From contig DYNF01000003.1 of assembly GCA_020721205.1 (NCBI GenBank), positions 15,038 to 79,037 on the forward strand: DNA of 64,000 bases, given 5' to 3'. Both the position numbers and the translations under genes were made by a program. Shown piece by piece: positions 2,751 to 62,237 of this stretch; within the stretch, counting starts at the first letter, position 1; every line of letters starts with the position of its first letter. The notes beneath the pieces were generated by a model that saw only the letters and a program-made list of their open reading frames with translations, was not told the DNA's origin and did not search any database. Source of the stretch: Prochloron sp. SulCav_FS08_3_32_3330 (GTDB lineage: Bacteria; Cyanobacteriota; Cyanobacteriia; Cyanobacteriales; DYNF01).

Positions 2751-3351
2751 AAAATTGATCGAATATTACGACTTCATTAAAATCTAATTGTCCTCCACGA
2801 GGTAAAGCAGGTTTTAAGGCTTTACCTACGGAAATCATTAAACAAATAATATGATCTTCAGGTAGATTAATTATTTCTGCTACTTTTACCGGATCAAAAC
2901 CGATCATCGGGCAACTATCATACCCCATTGCTTTAGCCGTTAACATTAAAGTTTGTGCGGCAATCCCACAGGATCTAATTGCTTCATCTCTTTGGATTTG
3001 TTCTTTTCCCTCATAAAAATTACCAATCATTGGTACAATCATTTTTTGTATTTCAGTGGGAGCATTTTGCCAATATCTAGCTGGATTTTTTTGCCATGCT
3101 TTAAGATCGGCACAAATAACGACTAAAATTGAGGCATCGGTAATTTGAGCTTGATCCCATGCGGCATTTCTGATTTTTTGACGAATTTCGGGATTTTTTA
3201 CTGCTAAAAAACGCCAATTTTGAATGTTAAAGGATGTGGGAGAAAGCAGAGTAAGCTCAAAAAGTTGTTTAATTTCTGCCTCAGATATTTTATGAGTTGA
3301 ATCGTAGTGTTTAACGGAGCGTCGTTGTTGAATAGCATCAAAAGTATTCAT
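2749..3351 (-). CDS. NAD(P)H nitroreductase family protein
   Basis: 200 aa. The N-terminus MNTFDAIQQRRSVKHYD is typical of the nitroreductase fold. Confidence 0.8.
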   Translation of the reverse strand: MNTFDAIQQRRSVKHYDSTHKISEAEIKQLFELTLLSPTSFNIQNWRFLAVKNPEIRQKIRNAAWDQAQITDASILVVICADLKAWQKNPARYWQNAPTEIQKMIVPMIGNFYEGKEQIQRDEAIRSCGIAAQTLMLTAKAMGYDSCPMIGFDPVKVAEIINLPEDHIICLMISVGKALKPALPRGGQLDFNEVVIFDQF

Positions 3352-53575: not shown

Positions 53576-56500
53576 ATGCCGAGAATATTTGATAACATTG
53601 ACCAAAAATTAGTAGAAGGATTAGCATATAGTCTTGATTCGGCTTATAGTGCTGACTTTTGTGTTGGTTATGTAAATTTACGAGGATGGCGTTTAATTGC
53701 TGATAAAATCGAGCATTTTTCAGGGGGCAATAATCAACAATGTCGAGTTTTAATTGGGATGCAAAAATTACCTTCAACTCAACTCTATGAGGAGTTGAAA
53801 ATCCTGAAAACTACAGAAACTGCTATTTCTCAGAAACAAATACCTAATCTAAAAAACTTGATTGTGCGAGAATTTAGAGAACAATTAATGGTAGGTGTTC
53901 CCAGCATTGCTGATGAAAAGGGTTTACAACAATTAAGGCAACAACTTTTAAGCCAAAAAGTAACAGTTAAGCTTCATTTACGTTATCCTCTCCATGCTAA
54001 ACTTTATTTACTCCATAAAAAAGACCAAGATCAACCAATGATCGGTTATTTAGGTAGTAGTAATTTAACTTTTTCTGGCTTAAAAAATCAGGGCGAATTA
54101 AATATTGATGTTTTAGATCATGATGCTACAAATAAGTTACAGGAATGGTTTAACGATCGCTGGAATGATCGCTTTTGTGTTGATATAAGTCAAGAATTAG
54201 CAAATATTATTGACGAAAGTTGGGCTACAGAAAAATTAATTCCTCCCTACTATATTTATCTCAAAATGGCTTATCATCTTTCTCAAGAAGCAAGGGATGG
54301 TTTAAGTCAATACGCTATTCCCTCAGAATTTAAACTATTTGATTTTCAGGAAGCCTCTGTTAAAATTGCCTGTCATCATGTCAACCGCCGAGGGGGTGTC
54401 ATTATTGGGGATGTGGTAGGTTTAGGTAAGACGATGATAGGCACAGCGATCGCCCGTATCTTAGAGGAAGATTTAGGTTATAGTACATTAATAATTTGTC
54501 CAAAAAATCTAGTGGCGATGTGGGAAAGTTATCGAGATAATTATGGTTTAAGGGCAAAAATTTTGTCTATTAGTATGGTGGAAAAAGAGTTAGAAAATAT
54601 ACCCGCTCGATTTAGATTAGTTTTAATTGATGAGAGTCATAATTTACGCAATCGTGACGGAAAAAGATACGCTTATATTAAAGATTATATTGAACAAAGT
54701 GGTAGTCGTTGTATTTTGTTAACGGCGACTCCCTATAATAAAACTTACCTTGATTTATCGGCACAATTAAGATTATTTATTAGAGAAGATCAAGACTTAG
54801 GAATTAGACCAGAAGAACTATTAAGAAATAGTAAATTTTCGGTGCAATATCCTGAGATTAGTCCTCGCACTTTAAAAGCTTTTGAAAAAAGCGAATATTC
54901 CGAAGATTGGCAACAATTAATGAGTAAATATATGGTGCGTCGTACTCGTAGTTTTATTCGGGCTAATTATGCTCAATTAGACATAGAAAAAAACAAGAAA
55001 TATTTAGAATTTGCTGATGGTACTCGTTCTTATTTTCCAGATCGTCTTCCGAAAACTGCTACTTTTAAACTAGGAGAAAAGGATCCCTATTCTCAACTTT
55101 ATTCTCCTCAAGTAGTAGATATTATTAGTAATTTGAATTTACCTCGTTATGCTTTAGGGAGTTATCAATTAACTACTATTTCTGAGAAATTATTAACAAC
55201 AAAAGAGAAAGATTTATTAGATAGTTTATCCCGTGCCGGAAGAAATTTAATCGGCTTTTGTCGCACTAATTTATTTAAAAGATTAGAAAGCAGTGGTTAT
55301 GCTTTTCTTGAGTCTATTGAAAGACATATTTTAAGAAATTATATCTATTTATATGCCATAGAATCAAACGTAGATATTCCTATTGGTACTCAAGATGTGG
55401 ACTTATTTTCTACCAGTTTAAATGACCAAGATCCGGATTCTACTTTAAGTAATAACCTAGATATTGATGATGAAAATAATGATGAAGATGAAGATGATTT
55501 AGAAGGTTTTGAAACCTTAGAAAAACAAGAATTAATCTATCAAGAAAAAGCCCAACAAGTTTATCAAGTTTATCAAGATAAATATCAAAAAAGATTTAAG
55601 TGGATTAGACCTAATTTATTTAATCAAGATTTAATCAAACATTTACGAGAAGATGCTCATAATCTCTTAACAATATTAAATAATGCTCCCCAATGGACAA
55701 CAGAAAATGACCAAAAACTCTTAGCTTTATATGACTTAATTACTAAAACTCATCCCGATGAAAAAATATTAATCTTCTCTCAATTTGCTGATACGGTTAA
55801 TTACTTAGGAGAAAAATTAACTAATTTAGACTTAAAAAACTTTGCTCGATGCTCGGGTAAATCAGAAAATCCTACTATTCTCGCTCAAAGATTTAGCCCT
55901 AAAAGTAATAATAAATATTTCCCCCCCTCCCAAGAATTAAGAGTTTTAATTGCAACAGATGTACTATCAGAAGGGCAAAATTTACAAGATTGTCGCATTA
56001 TCGTTAATTATGACTTACCTTGGGCGATTATCCGTTTAATTCAAAGGGCTGGAAGGGTAGATCGCATCGGGCAAAAAGCCTCCGAAATACTCTGTTATTC
56101 CTTTTTGCCGGAGGAAGGGGTGGAAAAATTGATTAATCTGAGAGGAAGACTCGGCGATCGCCTGAAAGAAAATGCGGAAGTTGTTGGCACTGATGAAATC
56201 TTTTTTGAAGGTGGCAATGATCAAGTAATCTTAGATTTATACCATGAAAAAGCAGGTATTTATGATGAGGCAGAAGACTCAGAAGTTGATTTAGTTTCTG
56301 AGGCTTTGAGTATTTGGGAGTCTGCAAAAGAAAAATATCCTGATATTGCTCAAAAAATTGAACAATTACCTAATGTTATTTATTCTACTCGTCACCATCC
56401 CCCCGAAGAAATTAATCCTCAAGGAGTTTTAATGTATATGCGTACTAGCGATGGGGTGGATGCTTTAGCTTATGTAGATGAAAATGGGAAAAGTGTTACT

Positions 56501-56962
56501 CAATCTCAAAGTCGCATTTTAAGACTCGCCCGTTGTGAATTGGAAACTGAGGCGATTAAGAGGAATCCGGCACATTTTGATTTAGTGAATAAAGGAGCAG
56601 AAATTATTGCTCAACAACAGAAAAAAATGGCAGGAGGAGGGAAGTTGGGAAGCCCTAACAGTGCAAGGGCAAAAACCTATAATCGTCTGAGTAATTATCT
56701 CCAAGAGATTAAAACCCATACTCCTATTTTAGCTAAAGGGCAACAATGGGATAATTTAACTAAAGCGGTGGAAAATATCTATAATTATCCTCTCAGTGAA
56801 AGGGCAATTACTCGTTTAAATCGTCAATTAAGAAGTGGGATTAGGGATCAACAATTAGCGGATTTAGTATTATCTTTGTGGGAAGATCAAGCTTTATTTG
56901 TCACATACGAAGATCAACAAATTAGAGACAGTCAAATTATTTGTTCATTAGGATTATTTTAA
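53576..56962 (+). CDS. HKD (PLD-family) nuclease domain fused to SNF2-family helicase
   Basis: N-terminal HAKLYLL...GSSNLT HKD motif. Helicase motifs GLGKT, LIDESHNLRN, LLTATP, SEGQNLQD, QRAGRVDRIGQ. Architecture matches the CDD class PLDc_N_Snf2_like. Confidence 0.88.
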   Translation: MPRIFDNIDQKLVEGLAYSLDSAYSADFCVGYVNLRGWRLIADKIEHFSGGNNQQCRVLIGMQKLPSTQLYEELKILKTTETAISQKQIPNLKNLIVREFREQLMVGVPSIADEKGLQQLRQQLLSQKVTVKLHLRYPLHAKLYLLHKKDQDQPMIGYLGSSNLTFSGLKNQGELNIDVLDHDATNKLQEWFNDRWNDRFCVDISQELANIIDESWATEKLIPPYYIYLKMAYHLSQEARDGLSQYAIPSEFKLFDFQEASVKIACHHVNRRGGVIIGDVVGLGKTMIGTAIARILEEDLGYSTLIICPKNLVAMWESYRDNYGLRAKILSISMVEKELENIPARFRLVLIDESHNLRNRDGKRYAYIKDYIEQSGSRCILLTATPYNKTYLDLSAQLRLFIREDQDLGIRPEELLRNSKFSVQYPEISPRTLKAFEKSEYSEDWQQLMSKYMVRRTRSFIRANYAQLDIEKNKKYLEFADGTRSYFPDRLPKTATFKLGEKDPYSQLYSPQVVDIISNLNLPRYALGSYQLTTISEKLLTTKEKDLLDSLSRAGRNLIGFCRTNLFKRLESSGYAFLESIERHILRNYIYLYAIESNVDIPIGTQDVDLFSTSLNDQDPDSTLSNNLDIDDENNDEDEDDLEGFETLEKQELIYQEKAQQVYQVYQDKYQKRFKWIRPNLFNQDLIKHLREDAHNLLTILNNAPQWTTENDQKLLALYDLITKTHPDEKILIFSQFADTVNYLGEKLTNLDLKNFARCSGKSENPTILAQRFSPKSNNKYFPPSQELRVLIATDVLSEGQNLQDCRIIVNYDLPWAIIRLIQRAGRVDRIGQKASEILCYSFLPEEGVEKLINLRGRLGDRLKENAEVVGTDEIFFEGGNDQVILDLYHEKAGIYDEAEDSEVDLVSEALSIWESAKEKYPDIAQKIEQLPNVIYSTRHHPPEEINPQGVLMYMRTSDGVDALAYVDENGKSVTQSQSRILRLARCELETEAIKRNPAHFDLVNKGAEIIAQQQKKMAGGGKLGSPNSARAKTYNRLSNYLQEIKTHTPILAKGQQWDNLTKAVENIYNYPLSERAITRLNRQLRSGIRDQQLADLVLSLWEDQALFVTYEDQQIRDSQIICSLGLF

Positions 56963-57204
56963 AGTTTGGAGTTTATAATGCGATTTTTAAAGTCTTCTTC
57001 AAACATTAAATTAGCTCTTTCTCTTAGTTCAGTTTGCTTTTTTCCTTGAGGTAAAATAGCAATACCATAAAGGATCTCTGCTTGAGTTATTGTAGTTGTA
57101 AATAAATTATTTATATTTTGTTGTGCTGTCCAATTATAGACATTTTCTGAACATTTATTACCTTTCATTAGTTCGGAAATAATGTTAGTATCTAAAATTA
57201 TCAT
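56959..57204 (-). pseudogene. Truncated VapC/FitB-like PIN toxin (81 aa, lacks the C-terminal acidic residues)
   Basis: MIILDTNIISELM...TQAEILYG covers only the first two of the four PIN catalytic acid positions. The 3' end overlaps the helicase stop codon. Confidence 0.6.
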
Positions 57205-57440
57205 TAGTTAAAGTTAGGGGGTTGACGCATTTTATCTCTAGTAATTAGGGGCATTTCTACTTCTTCTAAATCCCTAAATCTTTGGGTAATTCTTTGGGCT
57301 AGGTTTAAAGAATTTTGGTTTTCTTGGGTTAAACAATTACGCAAGATTTCGGTTATTTCTTGTTCTAATGTATGCCCTTTTTTCTGAGCTTGTTGTTGGA
57401 GTTTGTCGGTTAATTCATCATCAAGGTTGATTGTTAGCAT
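57204..57440 (-). CDS. RHH-type antitoxin (VapB/FitA-like)
   Basis: MLTINLDDELTDKLQQQAQKKGHTLEQEITEILRN. 1-nt overlap with the PIN gene. Confidence 0.7.
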   Translation of the reverse strand: MLTINLDDELTDKLQQQAQKKGHTLEQEITEILRNCLTQENQNSLNLAQRITQRFRDLEEVEMPLITRDKMRQPPNFN

Positions 57441-57530: not shown

Positions 57531-57740
57531 ATGTCTAATCTACAAACCTTAGAAAATAGCTCATTAATTGAGCAAAGATTAAGCAATTTAGAACAGGAAT
57601 TATCAACAAGTCAAAAAATCTTAAGCTCTAATTTTCAAGAATCTTACTGGTGGTTAAAAATTGCCGGAACTTTTGCAAATGATCCTACTTTTGATGAAGT
57701 TGAAAACCTCTGTCAAGAGTGGCGTAAATCGGCTTATTAA
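57531..57740 (+). CDS. Small conserved hypothetical (antitoxin-like, orphan)
   Basis: 69 aa. The AGTFANDPTFDEV...WRKS motif recurs in small cyanobacterial proteins usually paired with toxins (from memory, unverified). Confidence 0.45.
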   Translation: MSNLQTLENSSLIEQRLSNLEQELSTSQKILSSNFQESYWWLKIAGTFANDPTFDEVENLCQEWRKSAY

Positions 57741-57768
57741 AAACTAATTAAAACTAGAAGAATAAACC

Positions 57769-58077
57769 ATGAAAACAACTCACTATTTAACAACAAAAAT
57801 ACAAAAAGGAAATCGCTTAGATTTATACCTTCCTGAATTGGCTGAAGGGCAAAATGTAGAAGTCATTATTATTGTATCAGAAAATCAAACTATTAATAAT
57901 AGTGAAAATAATTTAGCACAATCAAAAAATTCAGAGCCAAATATGATCTCAAAATCATTAGCAGAGCGCCGTCAATTGATGGCACAACAGGCAGAAGCTA
58001 TGCAAAAATATTATGAAGAAGATCAATCATGGCGAGAGTGGGTTAATTTAGATTTAGGAGAGATATATGAGTATTAA
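57769..58077 (+). CDS. Putative antitoxin partner of MazF
   Basis: 102 aa. 11-nt overlap with the mazF-like gene. Confidence 0.55.
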   Translation: MKTTHYLTTKIQKGNRLDLYLPELAEGQNVEVIIIVSENQTINNSENNLAQSKNSEPNMISKSLAERRQLMAQQAEAMQKYYEEDQSWREWVNLDLGEIYEY

Positions 58078-58429
58078 ACCTCAAAGGGGGGAAATTTGGT
58101 TAGTTAACTTAGATCCTACCATTGGAGCAGAAATCAAAAAAACTCGACCTGTGGTTATTGTTAGCTCTAATACTTTGGGAAAATTACCATTAAAATTAGT
58201 TGTGCCAATAACTGATTGGAAAGACTCTTTTATTAATAATTTATGGCACGTTAAAATTAATCCTAACTCCCATAATGGATTAACGAAAAAATCCGTTGCC
58301 GATGCTTTACAAACTAGAAGTATTGATCTAACAAGATTTATTCAAAAGTTAGGAAATTTATCCTCCGAAAAGTTACAACAAATAAATACTGCTATTGTTA
58401 ATCTAATTGAATATGAACATGAAAATTAA
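58067..58429 (+). CDS. mazF: MazF/PemK-family endoribonuclease toxin
   Basis: PQRGEIWLVNLDPTIGAEIKKTRPVVIVS. Confidence 0.88.
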   Translation: MSIKPQRGEIWLVNLDPTIGAEIKKTRPVVIVSSNTLGKLPLKLVVPITDWKDSFINNLWHVKINPNSHNGLTKKSVADALQTRSIDLTRFIQKLGNLSSEKLQQINTAIVNLIEYEHEN

Positions 58430-61400
58430 TCGCAAAAACATTACTAAACATCTCGATCGCCTTGAGTTTGAATCCCTTTTTATTGAAGAATTAGGTTGGG
58501 ATTATCCCGAAGATAATACCGATAAATCTATTAATATTGATGAACAAATATTCACTTTAACTCCCATTGCTGAAAAACGGGGTTTTAATGTGTTTCTTTG
58601 CCTATTAGAAAATCAATCAATTCCCCTTTCTCCTACTCTCAAAAAAATAGATCAAGAAGTTAGTAAATATTCTTATGAACATTTTATTATTTATGTTTCA
58701 GAAATTGATAAAACTCAAAAATGGCAATGGATCAAAAAAGAAGTCAATAAACCTTTAGCTAATCGCACTGTGGAATATTCTACCCAGAAGAAAGAGGCTT
58801 TATTACAGGTATTAGATACCATTGCTGTTGACTTAGAGGAAGAAGAAAATCTTAATTTACTTGAAGTAAAATCAAAAGCAAAAAAAGCCTTTGATGTGGA
58901 TAAAGTTACTAAGAAATTCTATGATAAATTTAAGAAAGAACATAGTCAATTTTTAAGTTTTATTGAAGGCATAAATATAGATTTTGATCAAGAATGGTAT
59001 GCTTCTTTAATACTTAATCGTCTCATGTTTGTTTATTTTATCCAGAAAAAAGGCTTTTTAGATGGTAATATTAATTATCTACGAGATAAACTAAAAGCCC
59101 TCACCCCCCCAACCCCCCTCTCCCAAAGGGCGAGGGGGGAGTCAGACTCCTCTCAATTCTCCCCTCTCCCCGTGGGAGAGGGGCTGGGGGTGAGGGTTAA
59201 ATTTTACTCTTTCTATCGTTACTTTTTATTAAGATTATTTCATGATGGTTTAGGTAGTCAAAATCGCACCCCTGAATTAGATAATTTATTAGGAAAAGTA
59301 CCCTATTTAAACGGCGGTTTATTTGAAGTTCATCCTTTAGAAATTAAGTATCCTAATATTAATATTAAAGATTCTGCTTTTGAGCAAATTTTTACCTTTT
59401 TTGATCAATATAATTGGCATTTAGATGAGCGCCCTTTAAAACAAGATAATGAAATTAATCCTGATGTTTTAGGTTACATTTTTGAGAAATATATTAACCA
59501 AAAACAAATGGGGGCATATTATACTAAAGAAGATATTACTGAATATATTAGTAAAAACTGCATTATTCCCTATTTATTTGATACGGTTAAACAAGATTTA
59601 TTAGGCTATTTATCACCAGAGGAAGTTAATCATAATTTAGGTTTTTATTTACTCCAAGAAAATCCCGATCGCTATATTTATTCAGCAGTTAAAAAAGGTG
59701 TAGATTTACCTTTACCTGATGATATTACTAAAGGAATAAATGATGTTTCTCAACGTAATAATTGGAATATTCCTGCGGATGAAAATTATGGTTTACCTAC
59801 TGAATTATGGCGAGAATTTATTGCAAGGAGAAATCGCTGTTTAGAAATAAGAGAAAAATTAACTAAGGGTGAAATTACGAATATTAATGATTTAATTACC
59901 TATAATCTTAATATTCGTCAATTTGCTCAAGATGCTATTTCTAATCTTAATTCTCCCTTAATTCTCAATATTTTCTATCAGAAATTAGCCTCAATGTCTA
60001 TCTTAGATCCTACCTGTGGCAGTGGTGCTTTTTTATTTTCCGCCTTAAATATTCTTGAGCCTCTTTATGATGCTTGTTTAGAAAAAATGCAGGAATTTAC
60101 CCTCACCCCCCCAACCCCCCTCTCCCAAAGGGCGAAGGGGGAGTTAAGTCACTCACCCGGAGAGCGGGTGGAAAAGTGGGAAATTTCACCTGAGTTGGCA
60201 CAAAAAATGAAGGAAATTGCCCGTAAATTAAGGAAAGAAACCACTCCTAGCGAAAAAATCCTTTGGGAAGCATTAAAAAATCGCCAATTATGTCAGCAAA
60301 AATTTAGAAGACAACATCCAATCGGTGTTTTTGTTGTTGATTTTTATTGTCATGAAAAAAAATTAATTATTGAAATTGATGGCAGTATTCACAATTTACC
60401 TGAGCAAAAAATATTAGATCGTCAACGTCAAGAATTATTAGAATCTTTAGGGTTACGTTTCTTAAGAATTAGTAGTAAACAAGTAGAAACCGACTTACGA
60501 GAAACCTTAAAAATCATCGAAAAAAACCTTTTTTTATCCCCAGAATCAAACTCCCCCCTCGCCTCTTGGGAGAGGGGGGCTGGGGGGGTGAGGGCTAAAT
60601 TTCAAGGCATTTTAGCCAATATTAGAAGTCATAGTCATAATAGTAATGAAAATTCAGCGCGTAAATATTTTATCCTCAAAAATATCATACTTAATAATCT
60701 TTTTGGGGTGGATATTATGGAGGAAGCGACAGAAATTTGTAAGTTACGTTTATTCCTTAAATTAGCTTCTCAAGTTACCTCTAATCCTAATAATAAAAAT
60801 TATGGAATTGAGCCTTTACCTGATATTGATTTTAATATCCGTTGTGGTAATAGTTTAGTCGGTTTTGCTAATTATCAGGAAGTGGAAAAAGCCGTTAAAG
60901 GTGATAGTCAAACTAAGTTAGATTTATTTGATGATATGAGTATTATCAATGATAAAGCTAAAGCTGTGAGTGAGGTTTATCAAACTTTTAGATCTATGCA
61001 AACTCAATCGGATAATGGGATTAATTTTCGGGAAACTAAACAGAAATTACAGGCAAGTTTAGCTGGTTTAAATGATGAATTAAATCAATATTTAGCAAGG
61101 GAATATGGGATAGATATTAAGAAGAAAAAAGAGTTTGAAAAATGGTTAATTTCTCATCAACCTTTCCACTGGTTTACGGAGTTTTATTCGATTATTAATC
61201 ATGGAGGTTTTGATGTGATTATTGGTAATCCTCCTTATGTTGAATATAAAGATATTAAAACAAATTATCAACCTATTAATTATATTACAAAAACTTGCAG
61301 TAATCTTTTTGTATATATTTTAGAAAAATGTACATTTTTAAGTCATCAAAATTCTTATATTGGTATGATTATTCCTTTAAGTGCATTTAGCACTGATAGA

Positions 61401-62237
61401 ATGACACCATTAATTAATCATATTAAACAAACATCTTTAGAATTATATTTAGCTAATTTTAGTTGGCGACCCGGAAAACTTTTTGATGGTGTTAATTTAC
61501 AATTAACAATTTTACTTCAAAAAATGGGCTACAAAAATAATAACATTTATACAACTAAATATATTTTATGGGAATCTGAAACTCGTCCTCAATTATTTTC
61601 TAAAATTGAATTTACTGCAACTAATGATAATAGATTATCAGGCTCTATTCCAAAATTAGGTAATAAAAAAGGAGCTTTAATATTAGATAAGTTAAGAAAA
61701 GAAAAAAGCGAAATAGGACATTATTTTACAAAAAAATCAAATAATATTGTATTTTATAGAAGGGGAGGATTATATTGGAAGGTTTTTGTAGATTTTCCTA
61801 CAGAATCAAGTGAAGAAAAAATCATTTATCTTTTAGAAAATATTGACAAATATTTAATAGTTGCTGTTTTAAGTAGTAATCTTTGGTTTTGGTATTTTAC
61901 GATAACATCTGATTGTCGTCACTTAGGAAATAGAGATATTAATACTTTTCCACTTGATATTAAAAACTTATCCAATGAAATATACAAAAAACTTGCTTTT
62001 TTAGGAGAAAAATATGTCAATGACTTAAAATTAAACGCCGAAAATACAATAAGAGTTTATAAAGGGAAAAAATCAGTAGAATGTTTATCATTTAAAGTAA
62101 ATCAATCAAAACCAATAATAGATGAAATAGATAAAATATTAGCAGAACATTATGAATTTACAGAAGAAGAATTAGATTTTATAATTAATTATGATATTAA
62201 ATATCGGATGGGTAAAGAGTTGGGAGAAGAAGATTAA
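58407..62237 (+). CDS. Large Eco57I/COG1002-type N6-adenine (amino) DNA methyltransferase with TaqI_C-like specificity domain, carrying two in-frame TIR-element insertions
   Basis: Motif I ILDPTCGSGAFL (about 60000-60040), LFGVDI, motif IV NPPY (61226-61237). C-terminus EEELDFIINYD. Likely true start at ATG 58419 (MKINRK), as in the paralog remnant at 10640. Confidence 0.85.
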   Translation: MNMNMKINRKNITKHLDRLEFESLFIEELGWDYPEDNTDKSINIDEQIFTLTPIAEKRGFNVFLCLLENQSIPLSPTLKKIDQEVSKYSYEHFIIYVSEIDKTQKWQWIKKEVNKPLANRTVEYSTQKKEALLQVLDTIAVDLEEEENLNLLEVKSKAKKAFDVDKVTKKFYDKFKKEHSQFLSFIEGINIDFDQEWYASLILNRLMFVYFIQKKGFLDGNINYLRDKLKALTPPTPLSQRARGESDSSQFSPLPVGEGLGVRVKFYSFYRYFLLRLFHDGLGSQNRTPELDNLLGKVPYLNGGLFEVHPLEIKYPNINIKDSAFEQIFTFFDQYNWHLDERPLKQDNEINPDVLGYIFEKYINQKQMGAYYTKEDITEYISKNCIIPYLFDTVKQDLLGYLSPEEVNHNLGFYLLQENPDRYIYSAVKKGVDLPLPDDITKGINDVSQRNNWNIPADENYGLPTELWREFIARRNRCLEIREKLTKGEITNINDLITYNLNIRQFAQDAISNLNSPLILNIFYQKLASMSILDPTCGSGAFLFSALNILEPLYDACLEKMQEFTLTPPTPLSQRAKGELSHSPGERVEKWEISPELAQKMKEIARKLRKETTPSEKILWEALKNRQLCQQKFRRQHPIGVFVVDFYCHEKKLIIEIDGSIHNLPEQKILDRQRQELLESLGLRFLRISSKQVETDLRETLKIIEKNLFLSPESNSPLASWERGAGGVRAKFQGILANIRSHSHNSNENSARKYFILKNIILNNLFGVDIMEEATEICKLRLFLKLASQVTSNPNNKNYGIEPLPDIDFNIRCGNSLVGFANYQEVEKAVKGDSQTKLDLFDDMSIINDKAKAVSEVYQTFRSMQTQSDNGINFRETKQKLQASLAGLNDELNQYLAREYGIDIKKKKEFEKWLISHQPFHWFTEFYSIINHGGFDVIIGNPPYVEYKDIKTNYQPINYITKTCSNLFVYILEKCTFLSHQNSYIGMIIPLSAFSTDRMTPLINHIKQTSLELYLANFSWRPGKLFDGVNLQLTILLQKMGYKNNNIYTTKYILWESETRPQLFSKIEFTATNDNRLSGSIPKLGNKKGALILDKLRKEKSEIGHYFTKKSNNIVFYRRGGLYWKVFVDFPTESSEEKIIYLLENIDKYLIVAVLSSNLWFWYFTITSDCRHLGNRDINTFPLDIKNLSNEIYKKLAFLGEKYVNDLKLNAENTIRVYKGKKSVECLSFKVNQSKPIIDEIDKILAEHYEFTEEELDFIINYDIKYRMGKELGEED
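59098..59196 (+). mobile_element. 99-bp GC-rich TIR-only element (MITE form) inside the methyltransferase ORF, in frame
   Basis: Arms CCCTCACCCCCCCAACCCCCCTCTCCCAAAGGGCGAGGGGGGAG (59098-59141) and CCCCTCTCCCCGTGGGAGAGGGGCTGGGGGTGAGGG (59161-59196) are imperfect reverse complements. Encodes LTPPTPLSQRARGESDSSQFSPLPVGEGLGVR. Confidence 0.8.
60100..60594 (+). mobile_element. 495-bp TIR element encoding a DUF559 (Vsr-fold) endonuclease, inserted in frame in the methyltransferase
   Basis: Same arms as the 99-bp element (60100-60143, 60551-60594). Internal translation MKEIARKLRKETTPSEKILWEALKNRQLCQQKFRRQHPIGVFVVDFYCHEKKLIIEIDGSIHN...LGLRFLRISSKQV. Confidence 0.8.

Follow-up and report, generated by a model that had tools for sequence, protein, structure and literature searches.

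What is a predicted endonuclease doing inside the catalytic domain of a DNA methyltransferase, and how does the reading frame of the host gene survive it? The question is raised by a 495-bp element at 60100-60594 (+) of the window, by which we mean the whole 64-kb stretch of a Prochloron sp. contig (DYNF01000003.1) analysed here. The element, composed of two inverted arms that enclose a DUF559 nuclease open reading frame (ORF), lies within a Type IIG-like (Eco57I/MmeI-type) N6-adenine DNA methyltransferase gene (58407-62237 (+), 1276 aa), identified from the ORF list, Pfam and PADLOC. It has been inserted into a variable linker at the protein surface, between methyltransferase motifs I and IV, and its arm-nuclease-arm anatomy is common to relatives in many phyla, about half of which are read through in large host proteins, mostly restriction-modification methyltransferases. 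The reading we favour, with a probability of about 0.62, is that of a widespread family of arm-bounded DUF559 cassettes that behave as homing-type nucleases and persist as tolerated in-frame domain insertions.

A first-pass annotation, made from the sequence, had described an in-frame 495-bp segment inside the 1276-aa ORF, and its coordinates proved exact: the 165 codons of the segment are all open in the host frame, and the other five frames contain 6-18 stops each. The imperfect terminal inverted repeats reported at its ends (60100-60145 and 60549-60594) are 46 nt long and 91% complementary, and the window contains three occurrences of an arm 26-mer for which shuffles predict 0.00. The left arm (+), C-rich on the coding strand, contains a terminal CCCTCACCCCCCC and the hairpin CCCCCCTCTCCC-AAA-GGGCGAAGGGGG, and is read as LTPPTPLSQRAKGE; the right arm (+), G-rich on the coding strand, contains the hairpin CCCCCCTCGCC-TCTT-GGGAGAGGGGGG and, after CT, a terminal GGGGGGGTGAGGG, and is read as SPLASWERGAGGVR. 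In each orientation, two of the three frames run through both arms without a stop, and the peptides read here are rich in Pro, Gly and Ser. The segment had been called GC-rich (guanine-cytosine), which is true of its arms (70-74% GC) and not of the nuclease core (33.5%), compared with 27% for the host ORF and about 30% for the window. Methyltransferase motif I (ILDPTCGSGAFL, 59997-60032 (+)) is found about 22 codons 5' of the insertion, and the LFGVDI motif (60699-60716) and catalytic motif IV (NPPY, 61227-61238 (+), intact) downstream of it, in agreement with the site originally proposed; motifs I and IV are invariant in orthologues.

For comparison with orthologues, the best 120 methyltransferase homologues were collected, orthologues were aligned (alignment A1), and the syntenic locus L001 was compared in a codon-threaded alignment. 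Most of the 120 proteins are 1080-1100 aa long and carry no DUF559 domain. L001 encodes P0003, 81% identical over the best local alignment, shows the same gene order (an HKD-SNF2 gene, small ORFs, a PemK toxin, then the methyltransferase), and is empty at the site of the long element as well as at that of the shorter copy described below. An ancestral methyltransferase domain, the possibility that the first-pass annotation had set against its own reading, was accordingly rejected, since the closest orthologues, including the syntenic one, lack the segment. The orthologue alignment, foreseen as a means of fixing the boundaries and any target-site duplication, placed the edges of the long element exactly at 60100 and 60594 and gave no duplication at either window site relative to the empty L001; none was found in the orthologue locus L003 either. 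Instead, 16 linker codons of L001 (IDEETSLKLDSKEKKY) are missing at the long-element site, so that about 48 bp of host sequence have been replaced. The earlier label of a terminal-inverted-repeat (TIR) transposon or MITE (miniature inverted-repeat transposable element) therefore suits the anatomy, with terminal inverted repeats and multiple copies, and fails at the junctions. Transposition of the DDE or HUH type was rejected for the same lack of a target duplication and for want of a transposase, DUF559 being the sole ORF between the arms.

The same ORF holds a second, nuclease-less and MITE-like arm pair at 59098-59196 (+), 99 bp or 33 codons long and in the same codon phase. The left arms of the two copies are 98% identical. 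The short copy stands in for about nine linker codons of the orthologue (about 26 bp replaced), and its DNA is predicted to fold with -35 kcal/mol (z -5.2). Besides these two copies, no further GC-rich blocks or DUF559 motifs were found in the window. In the host protein, Pfam recognises MmeI_Mtase at residues 520-562, DUF559 at 600-707 (E=1e-29) and Eco57I at 763-1002, and the PADLOC match (REase_MTase_IIG, 1101 bits) is broken by the inserts into three stretches. Other orthologues also have insertions: at the first site of L002 there is a 38-bp mini-palindrome whose termini (CCCTCAC...GTGAGGG) are the same, and in L003, the locus of the orthologue P0072 from another organism, an independent DUF559 cassette occupies a third loop, while the linker that holds the DUF559 cassette of the window carries two tandem in-frame arm-only elements (about 2900-3150, site 2 of P0072). 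Orthologues from Cyanobacterium and Geminocystis have unrelated in-frame repeats (PLNKGG...EKVPLNKG) in the same three or four loops, which are therefore permissive. In P0004, P0009, P0010, P0011 and P0013, orthologues from these two genera, they have the form PPLPPLKKGG...NTEKVPLNKGDLGG, sometimes several in tandem, and one of these proteins reaches 1320 aa.

The nuclease domain (60204-60527 (+), ORF residues 600-707) is of the YcjD-like DUF559 type with a Vsr/EDxHD fold and has all residues that are invariant in the family. The DUF559 core recognised by eye in the first pass is firmly supported by the profile: translated alone, the insert matches Pfam PF04480 with 107.3 bits (cut-off 20.6, E=4.8e-31) over profile positions 2-107 of 109. 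It retains all 30 invariant columns of the family alignment A2, including E92, D94 and H98 (insert numbering). In an AlphaFold model computed from alignment A2, the core has pLDDT values of about 80-96 and the arm-encoded residues 1-26 and 157-166 values below 50, so that the arm peptides are predicted to be disordered. A Foldseek search of the model returned first the DUF559 structure 3hrl (TMt 0.84) and second the catalytic domain of I-Bth0305I (3r3p_A, TMt 0.77, E=3.4e-4, 26% identity), with weaker scores for Vsr; in a sequence search of the PDB, 3hrl was the sole match (E=4e-13). Homologues of the insert are at best 55-65% identical to it and typically have arm peptides at their start or end (PLSQ.GRGAGGEG, PHPPAPSPKLGEGE). 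The domain also occurs in stand-alone genes that are not embedded in another one, E. coli YcjD (35% identity to the insert) and N. gonorrhoeae NGO0050 (PDB 3hrl). The family is very large, with more than 23,000 representatives at E <=1e-3 in the 50%-identity set, and no published activity for proper members of PF04480 was found in the open-access literature. The in-frame internal ATG that had been pointed out is present (60207-60209 (+)) and is a possible internal start: its Met is at least 90% conserved at the beginning of the nuclease domain across the family (M37, nearly invariant in alignment A2), and gene callers begin the homologues P0138, P0140, P0141 and P0148 there.

Whether the anatomy is peculiar to this locus was addressed with one genome per species, which gave 532 relatives, of which the best 80 were kept, ranked by similarity to the methyltransferase-embedded query. 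They come from Cyanobacteria, Chloroflexota, Gemmatimonadota, Bacteroidota, Ignavibacteria, Gammaproteobacteria and other groups. Local alignment of upstream against downstream flanks revealed same-type arms in almost every one of these loci. In 40 of the 80, the nuclease frame belongs to a stop-to-stop ORF with host sequence on both sides that is no shorter than 387 aa and often exceeds 1000 aa. Under a stricter test demanding at least 100 stop-free codons on each flank, 23 of 61 evaluable loci are in frame on both sides; where flank GC is <=0.55, this holds for 15 of 17 doubly flanked copies, against a chance expectation of 1/6. A lack of frame bias, which the first pass had named as a finding that would speak for chance, is thus contradicted. 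The two exceptions in this low-GC set are L011, where the nuclease lies in sense orientation in another frame, and L075, where it is antisense. L011 and L009, from two Nostoc genomes, have DUF559 cores that are 97.6% identical and reside in orthologous Eco57I-type methyltransferases; the upstream host part of L011, being in a different frame, could be due to a frameshift in a pseudogene, to a split gene or to misassembly. About 26 more copies are flanked by coding sequence on one side or on neither, many of them apparently intergenic. If insertion were random and disruptive copies were lost, then at an assumed coding density of about 88% in-frame and intergenic copies should be roughly equal in number, as is seen; this simple reckoning favours selection as the origin of the frame bias.

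These data bear directly on the notion of an ordinary disruptive insertion that is in frame by chance and has left a dead methyltransferase. One in six random insertions into genes would indeed be sense and in frame. The 3.8-kb ORF, however, has stayed open in stop-rich sequence of 27% GC, with motifs I and IV intact, in spite of a nuclease core that has drifted to host composition; the same gene has taken up a second element in the same frame; and in-frame embedding recurs in dozens of unrelated loci. We regard chance disruption as very unlikely, and to judge from the sequence the methyltransferase most likely stays active. The first-pass annotation had seen a selfish, nuclease-carrying insertion that preserves the frame by the logic of inteins or homing elements and not by luck, and the orthologues lacking the segment, the independent cassette of P0072/L003 and the recurrent in-frame copies bear it out. 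It had missed the second, 99-bp copy, the wide spread of the cassette and the identity of its arms, to which we turn after the hosts.

Pfam scans of the 40 in-frame hosts from the best 80 relatives assigned about 30 to DNA methyltransferases or other restriction-modification proteins: seven of the MmeI family (L007, L012, L013, L018, L020, L026, L029), ten Eco57I-type (L006, L008, L009, L011, L015, L028, L030, L036, L046, L077), six DUF1156 (L005, L021, L023, L041, L067, L081) and five N6_N4 methyltransferases (L040, L051, L061, L064, L071), an SNF2 helicase with NOV_C (L010) and a Schlafen/AlbA_2 protein (L014). A Methyltransf_11 host (L047) was left out of the DNA methyltransferase count, its Pfam match being weak and partial. 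Other hosts are a UDP-glucose dehydrogenase (L027), PurL (L034), a xanthine dehydrogenase subunit (L043), an adenylosuccinate lyase (L049) and a MurD-like ligase (L072), and in four (L042, L058, L068, L082) no other domain was found. An independent sample, the best 150 among 1.84 billion 50%-identity representatives, contained 30 proteins of at least 350 aa, with the host domains Eco57I (8), MmeI_Mtase (7), N6_Mtase (7), DUF1156 (2), N6_N4 (2), HSDR_N (2) and Methylase_S (1), next to the housekeeping hosts HisF, UvrC, PurL, xanthine dehydrogenase and Dus. Individual hosts include P0241 (1214 aa), an Eco57I-type methyltransferase with two DUF559 domains (about residues 537-638 and 1072-1177), and P0250, a different methyltransferase whose cassette lies about 20 residues after motif I, a position that by comparison of motif positions is structurally analogous to that in the window. 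On the AT-rich metagenome contig Ga0208979_100105 (L141:992-3568 (-)), yet another Type IIG methyltransferase combines a long DUF559 cassette, which has multiple arm repeats, with a short element made of arms only, each in frame. Among short DUF559 proteins (P0177, P0188, P0203, P0208, P0233), several are named 'cyclase' or 'HisF' by the Joint Genome Institute (JGI), and one long representative has a His_biosynth domain; by their names and domains, this suggests in-frame hisF cassettes whose fragments inherited the name of the host gene.

The host spectrum speaks for an exapted module: restriction-modification enzymes would have taken up the DUF559 domain as a working nuclease, nickase or repair domain in the manner of Vsr-Dcm and would retain it for its benefit to the host system, with the arms as relics of its arrival or as linkers. 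About 30 of 40 in-frame hosts belong to restriction-modification, four methyltransferase families are represented, and the preference is replicated in the independent sample. Catalytic residues are invariant in the embedded copies, the host-like composition of the nuclease core implies long residence, and an architecture of methyltransferase plus DUF559 is common to several N6_N4 methyltransferases of Bacteroidota, Ignavibacteria and Kryptoniota. Against recruitment stand the closest orthologues, which work without the insert in a system that already has an HKD-SNF2 nuclease partner, the varying insertion positions, and the presence of the cassette in housekeeping enzymes and in an intein, where a role in restriction is implausible. 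The nuclease-less arm pairs and the unrelated repeats in the same loops likewise indicate tolerance, not function. Exaptation is in our view unlikely, if still the most serious competitor of the homing-type cassette.

The arms turned out to belong to a repeat with a history of its own: BoxC/PIT/TM repeats (TM for triplex motif, after an intrastrand triplex) have been known since the early 1990s (Bergler 1992; Hoyne 2000). The arms match the BoxC/TM consensus in Table 1 of PMC4666352, which reads CCCTC(T/G)CCC-loop-GGGAGAGGG-loop-GGGTGAGGG (Holder et al. 2015), the left arm being the reverse complement of the right-arm motif. According to the same authors the motif occurs in more than 260 genomes, with 23 TM motifs in E. 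coli K-12 (five as inverted pairs) and 443 G/C-rich motifs in Microcystis, and is tied to local genomic instability. In E. coli it is always intergenic, and transposases, integrases or other mobility functions were never found nearby (PMC4666352); the word 'endonuclease' does not occur in that paper. The E. coli repeats resemble the arms here in forming inverted pairs of often about 80-125 bp that are nearly base-exact across distant phyla; unlike them, both copies in the window lie inside an ORF and are translated in frame, the long one bounding a nuclease ORF. The motif is read in different frames, as LTPPTPLSQRAKGE here and as PSPPQPPSPKGEGG in L141, and the arms are therefore conserved at the level of DNA and not of peptide. 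Three of the four arm hairpins in the window (60553-60579, 60115-60141, 59113-59139) contain a G·A mismatch, CTCGCC opposite GGAGAG, of the type most common in E. coli TM motifs ('A mm', PMC4666352 Table 1). The idea that a conserved G·A mismatch is the substrate of a Vsr-like mismatch nickase was dropped as a general feature, since only 24 of 250 hairpins in DUF559 loci have it.

The association of arms and nuclease could itself be indirect, if BoxC/TM repeats merely gathered around DUF559 genes, or if DUF559 were passive cargo of repeats moved by some other host factor. An exact 27-mer of the arm was found in 119 metagenome stretches, mostly as pairs of 80-125 bp, and of about 50 complete pairs only one carries DUF559; these matches come mostly from high-GC soil taxa, where stop-free frames are uninformative, L141 alone being comparable with the window. 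Of the 23 E. coli TM motifs only one is near ycjD, and local instability has been ascribed to the DNA structure itself (PMC4666352). At that one place in E. coli K-12 (L084, NC_000913.3 1351204-1351760), an arm-like hairpin, CCCTCTCCC-TGAAAG-AGCGAGGGGG, spans the ycjD stop codon and is followed by a partial duplicate of the 3' end of the gene and, about 170 bp downstream and next to fabI, by BoxC/TM#9. Independence of the two parts is hard to reconcile with TM blocks sitting precisely in the two flanking zones in 71 of the 80 DUF559 loci, across many phyla and far more densely than in the other 580 kb of flank, nor does it account for the left arm and the ORF usually being continuous; in MITE families, non-autonomous copies normally outnumber autonomous ones by far. 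We hold such an indirect association to be even less probable than exaptation.

Removal of the insert after transcription or translation, by an intein, an intron or looping-out of RNA, would leave a mature enzyme without it. The arms are indeed predicted to pair in RNA over about 46 bp (minimum free energy -175.8 kcal/mol, z -8.5), as the first-pass annotation had suggested for the mRNA; pairing follows trivially from their complementarity, and for its further proposal that the insert is looped out, nothing indicates processing and no Rfam family matches. A long double-stranded RNA stem is also more likely an RNase III substrate than a splice site. An intron or ribozyme was rejected, Rfam yielding only sub-threshold miRNA-hairpin look-alikes (31 bits at best, for a gathering score of 72). 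An intein was rejected as well: the junctions ...QEF|TLTPP... and ...GGVRA|KFQG... have neither a terminal His-Asn nor a +1 nucleophile, there is no match to Hint or Intein_splicing, intein blocks are absent, and just 35 and 22 residues flank the nuclease. Despite the relative of the cassette that resides in a real intein, we give removal hardly any credence.

That relative (L027:733-3105) is found in a metagenome-assembled genome of an Anaerolineae bacterium, where a UDP-glucose dehydrogenase is split at its catalytic GGHC by an intein with canonical junctions (GGH|CLAPEE...VVHN|CIPVD), and the DUF559 cassette with its arm peptides occupies the position of the homing endonuclease. L027 may be a snapshot of an intein gaining its endonuclease domain, and agrees with a DUF559-type intein endonuclease of Thermosynechococcus that has been linked to the EDxHD family (PMC9403480). 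With EDxHD homing endonucleases (I-Bth0305I; Dassa 2009, PMC2677866; Taylor 2011, PMC3239194) the cassette shares a Vsr-like PD-(D/E)xK fold and residence in selfish insertions of host genes, its relative in L027 being an intein endonuclease. The copy in the window differs from them in its inverted-repeat bounds, in belonging to Pfam DUF559 (YcjD/NGO0050 type), and in having neither an intron or intein around it nor the NUMOD/helix-turn-helix (HTH) DNA-binding region described for I-Bth0305I (PMC3239194): its Pfam matches are to DUF559-type families only, and of the roughly 35 residues that precede the domain 26 are predicted to be disordered. Inteins with a homing endonuclease are likewise in-frame selfish insertions that preserve host function; in contrast to them, the insert has no Hint domain or splice-junction residues and would be expected to stay in the mature protein. 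There is a functional analogy with the Rickettsia palindromic elements (Ogata 2000; PMC10969869), palindromic in-frame repeats that add a peptide at permissive surface positions of functional proteins. These encode no enzyme, are confined to Rickettsia and are not expected to be related to the cassette in sequence, whereas the cassette family includes a nuclease-bearing, autonomous-looking form and is spread over many phyla.

Taken as a homing-type cassette, the element would be a homing endonuclease gene without a splicing vehicle. The host polypeptide would carry the predicted nuclease as an additional domain, and its translation might also begin separately at the conserved internal Met. With the arms acting as flexible linkers, insertion in the single open configuration into a permissive loop would add a separate domain and not destroy the host, and purifying selection would spare only those copies that lie in the one open frame and in permissive loops of proteins that are large and dispensable. 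Spread would begin with a break made by the nuclease, to be repaired by copying from an allele that has the cassette or from paired arms. Such a break-and-repair step is only moderately likely, and would explain the absence of a target duplication and the replaced host linker better than cut-and-paste. Short BoxC/TM pairs would then be non-autonomous derivatives of the cassette.

Several points weigh against this reading. The nuclease activity, site cleavage and mobility of the cassette are predictions from sequence and models. The domain, of about 110 aa, has no obvious sequence-reading module, which leaves specific recognition of a homing site unexplained, and insertion sites vary among hosts, contrary to classical single-site homing. 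Copies in the same genome are 57-69% identical in nucleotide sequence and show no sign of recent proliferation; the highest identities are between orthologous loci of related species, recent intragenomic proliferation was rejected on these grounds, and the divergence would point to slow turnover. Simple tolerance does not predict so strong a preference for DNA methyltransferases, which could instead point to a host function, and the sample of 80 had been ranked by similarity to a query that itself lies in a methyltransferase. The preference may arise because proteins that are large, dispensable, rich in loops and often transferred tolerate insertions, or because of a functional coupling.

A broader proposal goes beyond the family of cassettes and is offered tentatively: that DUF559/YcjD nucleases are the autonomous partners of BoxC/PIT/TM repeats and form a distinct, vehicle-less homing-type class that spreads and survives as translated domain insertions in frame, in which the arms serve both as structures for DNA recognition or recombination and as linkers, restriction-modification methyltransferases are the preferred hosts, and intein endonucleases can be seeded. 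There is a credible chance that they are a distinct class of element that explains the origin of BoxC/TM repeats. The parts are known, namely the repeats, the DUF559 fold, the EDxHD enzymes and in-frame palindromes, and the combination of DUF559 with BoxC is apparently new: no paper that links DUF559 to BoxC/TM repeats or describes in-frame DUF559 cassettes was found in open-access text, in keeping with the first-pass impression that such cassettes were undescribed.

The partner gene of the methyltransferase system encodes a fusion of an HKD (PLD) nuclease and an SNF2 helicase (53576-56962 (+), 1128 aa; PADLOC C3a139 'HKD+Snf2', E=8e-49), which the gene table of the insert-free syntenic locus L001 also contains. 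Small toxin-antitoxin-like ORFs lie between it and the methyltransferase (56959-57440 (-), 57531-58429 (+)), one of them PIN-like (MIILDTNIISEL...) with an upstream partner present. A PemK/MazF-like toxin (58067-58429), also found in L001 and L002, overlaps the methyltransferase start with its end. The ATG at 58419 is likely the true start of the methyltransferase, judging by M5, which is invariant in orthologues.

For genome annotation, such cassettes are expected to inflate and split methyltransferase gene models. The preference for methyltransferases could reflect tolerance, the dynamics of horizontal transfer of defence genes, or a functional coupling of a Vsr-like nuclease with methylation. 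Should the homing-type reading be true, L027 would suggest how inteins acquire their endonuclease domains, and a translated, linker-flanked domain would add to introns and inteins a third means by which an endonuclease gene can reside in host genes and leave them functional. The BoxC/PIT/TM repeats, reported without a mobility gene, would gain a candidate mobilising or partner gene, and a very large family of proteins of unknown function, E. coli YcjD included, would gain a candidate function.

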